Translations under genes and position numbers: made by a program
In this document: piece after piece, positions 107 to 2,735 of the stretch
How the letters are laid out: each line of letters begins with the position of its first letter
Numbering within the stretch: position 1 is the first letter of the stretch
Notes under the pieces: generated by a model
What the model was told of the DNA's origin: nothing
Database searches by the model: none
The model's input: the letters and a program-made list of their open reading frames with translations, nothing else
Assembly (NCBI GenBank): GCA_021824345.1
Contig: JAKAKW010000010.1
Span: 1 to 48,986 of the forward strand
DNA length: 48,986 bases
Source of the DNA: a bacterium
GTDB taxonomy: Bacteria > Patescibacteriota > Minisyncoccia > Phycocordibacterales > UBA9973
Direction of reading: 5' to 3'

Positions 107-685
107 CTAAAAGCCGATCCTTTGCGGCTTCGTTTCTTCTTTAAGCATTTGATGTATCGCTTGAAAGACGATCTTGAATTTCTTGTCATACTTTTTCTCC
201 AACTCTTCGATTTTTTCACGAAGTTCCCTATTGCCGGTAATCATTTCTCTGATTTTAGTGAAGGTGCGCATAATTTGGATATTTACTTGAATGGCCTGTT
301 CGCTTCGCAGAACGCTTGAAAGCATAGCAATGCCCTGCTCGGTGAAAACATGCGGGGCATAACGTTGCCCGCCCCAGCTTGAGGTCACAATTTGTGACCT
401 CAAGTTTTTTATATTATTTAGGTTACTAATTGAGTACTTTGAACTTGAGGTGTCAAATTGACACCTCAAGTTTTCCCACATTTTTATTTCCTGTTTGCTG
501 AGCTTAAACATAAAATCCTCGGGAAATCTTGCCCTGTTTCTGCTTACGGCTCGGTTCAAAATTTTTGTTTCCACCCCATAGAGCCCCGCCAAGTCGCGAT
601 CAAACATAACCTTTCGGCTCCTTATTAGATAAATTTTGTTTTGAATGACTTCTATGGGAGTCGTAATAATAATTTTTTCTTTCAT
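107..685 (-). CDS. ORF6N (KilA-N-like) domain DNA-binding protein
   Basis: KIYLIRSRKVMFDRDLAGLYGVETKILNRAVSRNRARFPEDFMF, FTEQGIAMLSSVLRS, C-terminal coiled coil ending RIGF. Confidence 0.9.
   Translation of the reverse strand: MKEKIIITTPIEVIQNKIYLIRSRKVMFDRDLAGLYGVETKILNRAVSRNRARFPEDFMFKLSKQEIKMWENLRCQFDTSSSKYSISNLNNIKNLRSQIVTSSWGGQRYAPHVFTEQGIAMLSSVLRSEQAIQVNIQIMRTFTKIREMITGNRELREKIEELEKKYDKKFKIVFQAIHQMLKEETKPQRIGF
378..404. repeat. perfect palindrome within ORF6N gene
   Basis: CTTGAGGTCACAA-T-TTGTGACCTCAAG. Confidence 0.95.
442..472. repeat. second perfect palindrome within ORF6N gene
   Basis: AACTTGAGGTGTCAA-A-TTGACACCTCAAGTT. Confidence 0.95.
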
Positions 686-715: not shown

Positions 716-754
716 CGGCGGATAACACGCGCGTTCTTCGCGTGTTATCCGCCG
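716..754. repeat. 16-bp stem-loop overlapping comM stop codon (possible terminator or 3' stabiliser)
   Basis: CGGCGGATAACACGCG-7 nt-CGCGTGTTATCCGCCG; no clear U-tract. Confidence 0.7.
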
Positions 755-2274
755 AACTTCGGCCTGTATTGCAGAGCTTCCAGAACATGTTCTGGACTGA
801 CCTCGGCATCTCCGCGGAGATCTGCGATGGTGCGCGCGACTTTGATCACCCGATGATATGCCCGGGCAGACAAAGCCAGGCGTTCGGCGCTCTGATTCAG
901 CAGTCCTAAAGCCGGCGCACTTATCCGGGACAGCTTTAAAATATCTTTTGCTTTTATATCAGAGTTCAGCCTTATTCCAGGTTCCGCTTTTTCAAACCTT
1001 TTCCGCTGAGTCTCTCTGGCCGAAAGCACCCTCGCTTTGATTGAACCGCTTTCTTCCCCGTTCTTTCCTTCTCCGAGCTTTTCATAATCAATTTTTCCGA
1101 CCGAGACCCACAGATCAATGCGATCAATAATCGGCCCGGAAATTTTTTTATTGTATCTCACCAGATCAAGAGGACTGCATCGGCATATTGATTCGTCTGA
1201 AAGATAGTTTCCGCACGGGCATGGATTCATGGCTGCCACTAAGATGAAGTTGGAAGGAAATATTGCCGTTTTTCTTGCCCTGGTGATGGAAATGAAATTT
1301 TCCTCCATGGGTTCTCGCAAGGCTTCAATGGAACGCTGTTCAAATTCAGGAAATTCATCCAAGAAAAGCACTCCGCGGTGGGCCAGCGTAACTTCTCCCG
1401 GCTTCGGATAAGCTCCCCCTCCCACTAATGAAACATATGAGGCGGTATGATGCGGGGATCGAAACGGCGGACAGGTGACAATCTTGCCCGCGCCTATGCC
1501 TGCAATGGAGTGAATCCCCGTCACTTCCAACGATTCTTCCATGGATAAATCAGGCAGGATGCCGGAAAACGCCCGGGCAAGCATGGTCTTTCCTGTACCG
1601 GGCGGTCCATACATGGCGATGTTGTGCCCGCCGGCCGCCGCAATCTCCAACCCTCTTTTCGCGCTTTCTTGCCCCTTTATATCAACGAAATCTTCCAAGG
1701 CGCCCGACAAACCATCCCGCTTTGGAACGGTCAGCGGGCAAGCCGGAATTTTTTTCTCTCCTGATAAGTGGTCCAACACTTCCCTTAAACTGCCGGATCC
1801 AAACACACTTATGCCGCATAAGAGCGCGGCTTCTTCGGCATTCTCTTCGGGCAGGAAAATTTCCGTGAAGCCCCTGCGGCGCGCTTCCTCCGCGAGAGGA
1901 AGCGCGCCGCGCACCGGCCGCAATGTTCCGTCCAACCCCAATTCTCCTAAAAATATTTTTTTCTCCGGCAAAAAATGCGCGGCCTCCGCCGCCAGAAGAT
2001 ACGAAAGAGCGATAGGCAGGTCAAAAAGCGATCCCTCCTTGCGCAGATCCGCCGGAGAAAGCGACACAGTGATTTTTTGGTTCTTTGATTTTGGGGAATC
2101 AAAACCGGAATTTTTAACTGCCGAGCTTACTCTGTCTTTGGCCTCATCCACTGCCTTTCCCGGCAAGCCAACCATGGAAAAAGAATGCAGTCCTCTGGAG
2201 AGATCCGTTTCTACGGACACAATTGTTCCGGAGAGAAGATTGATTTGGGCGGAATATACTTTTGCGAAGCTCAT
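745..2274 (-). CDS. comM: YifB/ComM Mg-chelatase-like AAA+ ATPase
   Basis: MVGLPGKAVDEAKDRV, GPPGTGKT Walker A, FRSPHHTAS, LFLDEFPEF, AAMNPCPCG, LSARAYHRVIKVARTIADL. Confidence 0.95.
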   Translation of the reverse strand: MSFAKVYSAQINLLSGTIVSVETDLSRGLHSFSMVGLPGKAVDEAKDRVSSAVKNSGFDSPKSKNQKITVSLSPADLRKEGSLFDLPIALSYLLAAEAAHFLPEKKIFLGELGLDGTLRPVRGALPLAEEARRRGFTEIFLPEENAEEAALLCGISVFGSGSLREVLDHLSGEKKIPACPLTVPKRDGLSGALEDFVDIKGQESAKRGLEIAAAGGHNIAMYGPPGTGKTMLARAFSGILPDLSMEESLEVTGIHSIAGIGAGKIVTCPPFRSPHHTASYVSLVGGGAYPKPGEVTLAHRGVLFLDEFPEFEQRSIEALREPMEENFISITRARKTAIFPSNFILVAAMNPCPCGNYLSDESICRCSPLDLVRYNKKISGPIIDRIDLWVSVGKIDYEKLGEGKNGEESGSIKARVLSARETQRKRFEKAEPGIRLNSDIKAKDILKLSRISAPALGLLNQSAERLALSARAYHRVIKVARTIADLRGDAEVSPEHVLEALQYRPKFGG

Positions 2275-2375: not shown

Positions 2376-2735
2376 TTATGCCTTATTCATATGCTTCTTG
2401 CAGGTTTCCGCGGCGGGATTGGCTTTCAGCCGATCCATCTCAATCTCCTTTCCGCACACCGCGCATTTGCCGAAGGATTCTTTCCTAATATCCTTCAGCG
2501 CCTTTTCCACCAGCTTCAGCCTCTCCTCTAATACCTTTACCGTGGAACTCCTTGATTCAAAATCTTCAAAACGATCCGCCATGGCGTTAGAATCGGACTC
2601 CGGCGAGTCTTGCTCTTCGGGAAAGGCCTCCCATTCGTCTGTTTCCTTGTTAAAACGGCCGATCTCTTTGAGCTGGTCCGTAAGGTCGGCTTTCTCTTTT
2701 TCCAGATCTTCTTTTATCTTGTCTTTATCCAACAT
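2376..2735 (-). CDS. TraR/DksA family zinc-finger transcription factor
   Basis: Coiled coil with acidic tip, FGKCAVCGKEIEMDRLKANPAAETCKKH. Confidence 0.85.
   Translation of the reverse strand: MLDKDKIKEDLEKEKADLTDQLKEIGRFNKETDEWEAFPEEQDSPESDSNAMADRFEDFESRSSTVKVLEERLKLVEKALKDIRKESFGKCAVCGKEIEMDRLKANPAAETCKKHMNKA

Follow-up and report, generated by a model that had tools for sequence, protein, structure and literature searches.

The locus and its palindromes

We analysed a stretch of 48,986 nt (the window; positions 1 to 48,986 of contig JAKAKW010000010.1, assembly GCA_021824345.1) from a bacterium of the order Phycocordibacterales (Patescibacteriota). Near its beginning lies a gene for a protein with an ORF6N domain, and within this gene stand two perfect palindromes (Table 1). 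A first-pass annotation, made from the sequence alone, had called attention to these palindromes, to their shared outer arms and compensatory inner bases, and to the related peptides that they encode. It had argued that selection or some mechanism acts on the structure of the nucleic acid rather than on the peptide, and had proposed a self-encoded operator, a hypervariable cassette or a recombination site as the function. Our repeat search, the sequence itself and the Pfam match given below bear out this description of the locus. The palindromes are an instance of a cis element within coding sequence (a coding palindrome). The observation holds up, greatly exceeds what chance would give and reaches further than the window alone could show.

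Table 1. Features at the ORF6N locus of the window.
Feature	Positions	Strand	Description	Basis
ORF6N-domain gene	107..685	-	192 aa; carrier of the units	open reading frame (ORF) call; Pfam, PADLOC and PHROG matches; AlphaFold model
Unit A	442..472	-	perfect palindrome, 15-nt arms, 1-nt centre; codes NLRCQFDTSS	repeat search; covariance-model match, E 2e-8
Decayed middle unit	~417..443	-	7/12 arm pairs; codes ~SKYSISNLN	sense position 255, same frame as other units
Unit C	378..404	-	perfect palindrome, 13-nt arms, 1-nt centre; codes NLRSQIVTSS	repeat search; covariance-model match, E 1e-9
GC-rich stem-loop	716..754	-	16-bp perfect stem, 7-nt loop; not of the family; context only	stem-loop search

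The arms of unit C occupy positions 378-390 and 392-404, those of unit A positions 442-456 and 458-472, and the units follow each other at a distance of 66 nt (22 codons). They have the same outer arms; the inner bases are changed in the left and the right arm alike, in such a way that each palindrome is still perfect. Unit C is the commonest unit type in the ORF6N family, and homologues carry an intact unit at the position of the decayed middle unit of the window (e.g. ...SKYQI...). The window protein matches the Pfam ORF6N profile (PF10543) with an E-value of 8e-34 and 116.2 bits, against a cut-off of 27.8, with profile positions 1-86 aligned to residues 16-125. This match is about 24 residues longer than the profile itself, and at the level of the genome it is split into profile positions 1-65 and 50-86 because the region of the units is duplicated. 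From the over-long, split match, the segment is recognised as a piece of the domain that has been duplicated in tandem and in frame, which has left the gene with two intact units and one decayed unit.

Whether folded as RNA or as DNA, unit A forms a hairpin of 14 bp closed by a 3-nt loop, and the sense strand of the window forms two separate hairpins of 14 and 12 bp, again with 3-nt loops. The fold energy of the window units is -41.8 kcal/mol as RNA (z -6.7) and -28.5 kcal/mol as DNA (z -9.4). A longer helix joining both units, with 29-nt arms that are 86% complementary, was considered and rejected, as the predicted folds are both local. In an AlphaFold model of the window protein the encoded peptide is a coil (residues 82-111, pLDDT 52-60), as it is in a homologue with a single unit (residues 72-88, pLDDT 63-68), and the C-terminus of the window protein is a long helix (residues 129-182) that gives a coiled-coil-like tail.

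The arm pattern CTTGAGGT-N11-ACCTCAAG, allowing up to two mismatches, occurs twice in the window, where 0.00 occurrences are expected from 100 shuffles. The genome search called for by the first-pass annotation thus recovered the two copies in the window and no further copy in the 833-kb genome. A covariance model built from 82 units of the family (see below) likewise finds only the two in-gene units in this genome at E ≤ 1.

A palindrome at one fixed place in ORF6N genes

A protein search with the window protein yielded at least 8000 relatives at E ≤ 0.001, and the best 120 of these carry one to four copies of the peptide L-[RK]-x-Q-[IF]-x-T-S ahead of a conserved GG-R-Y...FTE block. For comparison at the level of nucleotides we used 80 homologous loci from a species-representative genome collection, in a scan seeded on six peptides without the unit motif. 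These are the best 80 of 579 relatives (605 stretches), and they come from Omnitrophota, Desulfobacterota, Saccharibacteria, Planctomycetota, Bacteroidota, Nitrospirota and other phyla. Together with the window they provide 81 genes, in which we counted Watson-Crick pairs on 12-nt arms around a 3-nt centre; these pair counts replaced a perfect-stem statistic that was too strict at one mismatch.

A unit with at least 9 of 12 pairs is present at the homologous site in all 81 genes (12 pairs in 38 genes, 11 in 34, 10 in seven and 9 in two). Mean pairing is 11.33 of 12, compared with 5.18 of 12 after synonymous recoding of the same sites with the codon usage of each locus. For 69 of the 81 genes the observed value was reached in at most one of 1000 recodings, for 76 in at most 10, and for 80 in at most 50, the exception being locus L054 (153 of 1000). 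A comparison with the gene-wide maximum gave a similar picture, as 57 of the 81 genes were never matched in 200 recodings and 69 were matched at most twice. Homologues therefore keep the symmetry far above the codon-expected background, and the pattern of a peptide retained without its palindrome is not what they display.

A second scan, with the protein of L063 as seed, added 80 loci and brought the total to 165 loci with 169 distinct ORF6N-family ORFs. Twelve pairs are found in 75 of these ORFs, 11 in 65 and 10 in 19, so that 159 have at least 10 of 12; the 10 that fall below are mostly fragments without the region, plus a plasmid gene of Legionella oakridgensis. Among plasmid homologues, which are 30-53% identical, nine of 12 have at least 10 pairs, and the same is true of all eight viral-contig homologues that cover the site. 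In some plasmid homologues the otherwise constant C-G pair of the core is replaced by A-T on both sides. Such cores occur, for example, in a Treponema gene that is located between hsdM and hsdS and on two small plasmids of Segatella. Arms are perfect over as many as 19 nt in homologues. The element is a hairpin-forming palindrome of 27-35 bp, with arms of 12-17 bp, an A/T-rich centre of 1-3 nt and a usual core TCACA-N3-TGTGA, and throughout Bacteria it occupies the same position within ORF6N-domain genes.

Among the relatives of the window's organism the covariance model finds units in four of 24 genomes of the same genus and in none of 16 other genomes of the order, a patchy presence that marks the gene as accessory; the genomes that hold units have one to five model matches each, both strands counted. 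Tandem ORF6N paralogues, two or three in a row, are found at L032, L074, L014, L033 and L052, and each has a unit with different inner base pairs. Two Segatella copri plasmids, L088 (4,140 bp) and L174 (2,955 bp), are annotated with a replication initiator and an ORF6N gene and nothing else, and their ORF6N genes have an internal palindrome with a different core. This minimal gene content hints at a role in plasmid maintenance or copy control.

Nucleotides rather than residues are conserved

We aligned 82 units, one from each locus plus the two of the window, over 33 nt. Units were picked by score and position, and five references were adjusted by hand, a choice that leans to paired units and not to any type of pair. 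The 82 units show no indel, gap, bulge or change of length. Over a helix of 15 pairs, 87.0% of cells form a pair, compared with 70.4 ± 0.7% in shuffles. Double changes occur in 12 of the 15 pairs and amount to 199 cells, against 69.4 ± 6.0 in shuffles, none of 500 of which reached the observed number. The covariation score is 0.443, whereas shuffled alignments give 0.151, and sliding the partner by one to three columns gives no more than 0.102. Several pairs make use of three or four Watson-Crick types, as illustrated by pair 13/21, which is AU in 34 units, CG in 32, GC in 10 and UA in two.

The choice of codons inside the unit departs strongly from that in the rest of the same genes. Leucine is encoded by TTG in 81% of cases against 17% elsewhere, arginine by AGG or AGA in 98% against 41%, glutamine by CAA in 94% against 47%, serine by TCA in 76-80% against 18%, and threonine by ACC in 73% against 31%. 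The variable residues of the peptide, x3 and x6, also covary, in the combinations S-V, S-A, F-G, F-E, Y-G, C-D and C-G. Such residue pairs are to be expected if codons 3 and 6 are reverse-complementary when read one base out of register. In addition, about 19 of the 169 genes read the core TCACA-N3-TGTGA one base out of frame, and so encode E-[LV]-V-[TI]-N-C-D-[RHN]-[FL] in place of L-R-S-Q-I-V-T-S.

The reading of the core in a second frame, the low-confidence loop in which the peptide lies and the forced codons together establish that the nucleotide element is what is conserved, and that the peptide L-R/K-x-Q-I/F-x-T-S follows from it. The proposal that selection or a mechanism acts on the nucleic acid is therefore strongly supported, and family-wide, by the same-site recoding, the covariation, the codon bias and the second frame.

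Copies outside the reading frame

Counting distinct palindromes in which 11 or all 12 of the 12 pairs form, the 165 loci contain 185, and 154 of these are inside ORF6N-family ORFs. Of the 31 that are not, about half are GC-rich and terminator-like, and some 15, judged by eye, have the core of the family. Ten units in nine loci are located 25-166 nt upstream of the start of the domain. At L003, L079, L143 and L086 the upstream unit ends directly 5′ of the Shine-Dalgarno sequence, and other upstream units precede hexamers that look promoter-like by eye. Units are also found just past the stop codon, at L085, L172, L314 and L315. The gene at L301 has two upstream units, one internal unit and one downstream, and that at L244 has one upstream, three internal and, after its stop codon, a non-coding array of six with a period of 51 nt. 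The spacers of the L244 array (positions 1150-1440 of that locus) are similar to one another, and the array resembles a centromere or iteron array or a false CRISPR.

Between upstream units and the internal unit of the same locus 18 of 24 arm positions agree, compared with 15.2 for the internal units of other loci, and three of 5000 permutations reached this degree of likeness. This likeness is driven by five of the 14 upstream units.

The exact 19-mer of the core occurs in at least 122 places in the genome collection. In 80 loci fetched for this string there are 85 occurrences, of which 58 are inside ORF6N-family ORFs, 10 are beside one and 17 have none within 700 nt. The last are intergenic and lie near genes for NADAR and KptA, HicA, RhuM or a type I restriction subunit, or near the 3′ end of a Mg-chelatase/ComM-like gene, and in four of five such genomes that we checked there are ORF6N genes elsewhere, with different arms.

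DNA or RNA

In a helix that is selected in one strand of RNA, G·U is expected to be tolerated much more readily than A·C. Among 300 distinct coding units we find 53 G:T and 53 A:C mismatches along with 71 of other kinds, and in 52 non-coding units, oriented by the neighbouring gene, the respective numbers are 12, 13 and 22. An earlier, first sample gave 23, 24 and 35. The G·U criterion for a functional helix in the sense-strand RNA thus yields no excess over A·C in either set. The loops are symmetric as well. AAT and ATT, which are reverse complements (coding for Ile and Phe), account for 123 and 106 of the 300 coding units and for 25 and 20 of the 52 non-coding units. As these two loops make up 229 of 300 and 45 of 52 units, respectively, most units are palindromic through the centre. 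Part of both sets stems from the search with the exact 19-mer, in which centre and inner pairs are predetermined. With this qualification, the equal numbers of G:T and A:C mismatches, the strand-symmetric loops and the lack of indels favour a strand-symmetric constraint that would act at the level of DNA, not of the sense RNA.

These data bear most directly on the possibility that the element is an mRNA hairpin that controls translation, ribosome pausing, RNase processing or mRNA stability, perhaps as a translational autoregulator bound by the ORF6N protein. Such a hairpin would account for the strong covariation in the stem, for the free 3-nt loop seen in about a quarter of coding units and for the folding of the window units as separate, stable RNA hairpins. 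Four upstream units abut a Shine-Dalgarno sequence, copies upstream, inside and downstream of a gene would share one transcript, and the arms contain Shine-Dalgarno-like and anti-Shine-Dalgarno-like tetramers (in units 378-404 and 442-472 of the window, GAGG in the 5′ arms and CCTC in the 3′ arms). However, an RNA hairpin explains neither the lack of a G·U excess nor the symmetry of the loops between strands, and complementarity that runs through the centre is not needed by a hairpin loop. Bulges and changes of length are also missing, some upstream units precede promoter-like hexamers, and no Rfam family matches. We therefore consider an mRNA function to be rather unlikely, although it is the strongest of the alternatives to a DNA site.

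The Rfam comparison covered positions 1-1000 of the window at E-values up to 10, where nothing attained a gathering score (the best hit was to a spurious miRNA model, with 27 bits against a threshold of 80), and five loci with upstream units at gathering thresholds, where there were no matches.

A candidate site for the ORF6N protein

As the element is found inside, before and after the gene of a predicted DNA-binding protein, forms arrays, is symmetric between strands and has a conserved apex, we read it as a cognate site of that protein. In the model that we favour, the element would be a palindromic or cruciform DNA site for a dimeric ORF6N protein, and would serve autoregulation or cooperative binding. 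The element would thus act as DNA and be recognised by the ORF6N protein itself, which would dimerise, probably through its C-terminal helices. The protein might read the conserved apical core on the palindrome either in double-stranded form or extruded as a cruciform or hairpin, as the apex of the element is conserved and the lower stem need only pair. The internal copy, along with upstream and downstream copies where these are present, could then give autoregulation or cooperative binding and assembly, and template switching between the arms during replication probably helps to keep them perfect. Of the three functions suggested in the first-pass annotation, the self-encoded operator is the best fit to these sequence patterns. 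We hold this model tentatively, and put its chances slightly below even.

Several observations weigh against it. ORF6N is a predicted DNA-binding domain only. Complementarity extends over 12-19 bp per arm and covaries to the outermost positions, and the units around one gene can differ in their outer arms (L301, L244, L053). A classical operator requires less pairing than this. The excess suggests a folded structure, be it a hairpin or a cruciform, or else a process that is purely mutational; either the folded form matters, or template switching keeps the arms perfect, or both. Most loci, the window's genome included, have no copy outside the gene, so that looping cannot be general. Nine of the 14 upstream units are no closer than average to the internal unit of their own locus. 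Finally, the set of 52 non-coding units includes loci from the exact 19-mer search and is biased to that core and centre, and some of these units may sit in undetected gene fragments.

Alternative origins and functions

One alternative requires no function at all. The unit could be a self-perpetuating quasi-palindrome, kept by intrastrand template switching or arm-to-arm conversion within a loop that tolerates change. Arms that are perfect for up to 19 nt, equal numbers of G:T and A:C mismatches and frequent double transversions, such as those between the AU, CG and GC forms of pair 13, are what such a process would leave behind. In seven close pairs of genes there are two paired arm changes and no one-sided change, a sample too small to weigh, and the peptide lies in a low-confidence loop. 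A mechanism of this kind has been proposed for the coding palindromes in mitochondria of Nematomorpha (PMC6649704). On the other hand, one and the same site has been kept through 30-60% divergence of the protein and across many phyla, with few losses among intact genes, and the core is retained even where it is read in a second frame. Copies with the same core stand specifically in adjacent non-coding DNA and in regular arrays, and other genes of the same loci have no such accumulation, given that 154 of 185 strong palindromes are in ORF6N-family ORFs. On balance we regard a functionless palindrome as unlikely, although template switching of this kind is part of the model that we favour.

Recombination was another function proposed in the first-pass annotation. 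The unit could be a breakpoint or crossover site at which units are duplicated, halves of ORF6N genes are swapped or the gene is mobilised. The variable number of units among homologues would fit, as would gene fragments that start or end at a unit (L092, L113, L047, L078, L055 and L007) and near-identical twin units on either side of the N-terminal half of the gene (L086) or of its C-terminal part (L172). Three of the six plasmid loci first examined have a tyrosine integrase as neighbour, three of 139 neighbouring ORFs encode such integrases, and the gene has a patchy distribution in close relatives. Tyrosine recombinase cores need a spacer of 6-8 bp, however, and serine recombinases an even (2-bp) centre, whereas all 82 aligned units have a centre of 1 nt, or in effect of 3 nt, and we accordingly rejected a core site for either type of enzyme. 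Moreover, the neighbours are mostly unrelated housekeeping or defence genes, the contigs described below contain no variant forms, and the fragility of palindromes may by itself account for breakpoints there. The proposal is left with hints, namely the broken genes and the twin units, and seems to us quite improbable.

Individual truncated genes differ in where they break. The fragments at L092 and L113 start at the unit. At L007 (positions 892-1483) a neighbouring copy of the gene is split into two ORFs and is missing exactly the unit segment (profile positions 67-83), and at L065 an in-frame stop directly follows the DFMF-type anchor, 10 codons ahead of the unit.

Least probable of all, and in our estimation a very long shot, is a self-referential module in which the palindrome-encoded loop peptide would itself read the palindrome, such that one paired change of the arms, for example by template switching, would alter site and reader together (S-V, F-G, C-D) and create new, private protein-site pairs in a single step, an arrangement that would explain why paralogues and tandem units of one genome have different inner base pairs.

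Some simpler classes of element were set aside. An intrinsic terminator does not agree with the flanks, as a T-run is present only on the antisense (+) strand of the window unit at 376-406; the 3′ flank on the sense strand of the window reads GCTGGGG, and the flanks of the 82 aligned units are not T-rich. The units do not form a CRISPR array, since compensatory changes set them apart from one another and their in-frame translation is part of a Pfam domain. A dispersed repeat of the REP/RAYT or MITE type is contradicted by the presence of only two units, both within the gene, in the 833-kb genome.

No support was obtained for the third function proposed, a hypervariable cassette. The unit is stable across phyla, and contigs of four DNA sequencing runs from one study, which may be the source of the DNA, contain no indel or variant in the units, although contigs cannot reveal rare variants. 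The run contigs break at the palindrome at 378-407, and the summed depth at positions 353-440 rises more than 10-fold in runs X1-X4 because contigs of many other organisms share only this unit of about 35 nt. The contig of the window ends 106 nt past the gene, and one run contig continues for about 2.9 kb further.

Protein family and genomic context

In addition to ORF6N, the window protein matches three PADLOC models of the candidate defence system PDC-S05 (PDLC04856, E 6.2e-56; PDLC04869, 5.3e-55; PDLC04849, 2.3e-36) and PHROG anti-repressor families (E 2.7e-29). No NCBIfam family matched the protein. A sequence search of the PDB returned no ORF6N structure, and Foldseek against the PDB gave nothing at E ≤ 0.001. 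Structure alignment with VIA-align gave matches that are too weak to use (best Z 5.7; Dachshund/Ski 4.7-4.8; the DNA-binding domain of pSK1 Par 4.3).

The 139 ORFs flanking homologues are diverse and include hsdM and hsdS, integrases, Cas, Fic, RhuM and PIN proteins, transposases and many housekeeping genes. Homologues are found between hsdM and hsdS, or near Cas, Fic, RhuM or toxin genes. The gene is rare in viral collections, with five cases in 50,697 phage records and nine loci in IMG/VR. One representative of PDC-S05, described as having a RhuM domain, is reported to protect E. coli from phages T7, T5 and T4 (bioRxiv 10.1101/2024.09.26.614923). The window gene resembles this system in its matches to three PDC-S05 models and in the position of its homologues near defence genes. 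It differs in that the protective representative is described with a RhuM domain, whereas the window protein is of the ORF6N type, and that description does not touch on a palindrome.

Immediately upstream of the ORF6N gene, the GC-rich stem-loop of Table 1 overlaps the stop codon of a Mg-chelatase/ComM-like gene (745-2274, minus strand), at a distance of 31-69 nt from the ORF6N start; a consensus scan finds it terminator-like on the minus strand. The only other perfect palindrome in the window with arms of at least 13 nt and a 1-nt centre is also GC-rich. It has 16-nt arms and occupies positions 2338-2370, between the start of the ComM-like gene (2274) and the end of an ORF for a DksA/TraR-type zinc-finger protein (119 aa, 2376-2735, minus strand), and is probably a terminator. 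In three unrelated genomes (those of the window, L098 and L252) a Mg-chelatase/ComM-like gene is closely followed by an ORF6N gene or a lone unit, and this neighbourhood may be an insertion hot spot or a matter of chance.

Comparison with known palindromic elements

Palindromic cis sites of DNA-binding proteins are known within coding sequence, as exemplified by parS inside parB/spo0J and by the internal operators gal OI and lac O2. The ORF6N element is similar in that it is a palindromic site in a coding region; parS even resides in the gene of its own binding protein, with further copies nearby. Unlike these sites, the ORF6N element is longer (27-35 bp), covaries at every arm position, is universal at one codon position of a domain family and dictates a conserved peptide, and it is a putative binding site.

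REP elements are associated with RAYT transposase genes, and a centromere array of the sopC type is located beside sopB. As in these systems, the ORF6N element is a short palindrome that accompanies the gene of a dedicated DNA-binding protein, and flanking units and regular arrays such as that of L244 occur. The ORF6N element differs by its very low copy number (two in the genome of the window, both in the gene), by the in-frame coding nature of its defining copy and by a protein without an HUH or ParB domain. Rickettsia palindromic elements, by comparison, are selfish in-frame insertions in many unrelated genes that then decay. They share with the ORF6N element a palindrome whose in-frame translation adds a peptide where the protein tolerates an insert, but the ORF6N unit is maintained and is tied to ORF6N genes, as seen in the distribution of the exact core.

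Closest among published phenomena are the coding palindromes in mitochondria of Nematomorpha (PMC6649704). These are likewise perfect inverted repeats in genes, with both arms coding and pairing kept by virtue of codon degeneracy, and template switching has been proposed for their maintenance. They are described as scattered, gained and lost among genes and species, and up to 284 bp long, whereas the ORF6N element is short, occupies one homologous site in one bacterial gene family across phyla and has non-coding copies adjacent to the gene. Full-text searches for the family, the defence system and the DNA and peptide strings of the core, which did not extend to subscription journals and supplements, returned no description of the element, and among the matches listed 'ORF6N' is in no title or abstract. 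The element thus appears to be undescribed so far.

Implications

The signature motif of ORF6N, a widespread and unstudied family, is apparently conserved through the DNA that encodes it and not through the protein. Covariation between amino acids in an alignment can therefore be the shadow of base pairing, a point of relevance to contact prediction, domain models and dN/dS analyses. On the practical side, short-read assemblies break at the units, and arrays of several units could pass for CRISPR-like repeats.

The element also offers a direct handle on the function of ORF6N proteins, many of which are encoded in defence islands and restriction-modification operons. If the protein does bind the palindrome of its own gene, the ORF6N family would provide a clear bacterial case in which a cis element and a protein motif are locked in the same nucleotides across phyla.

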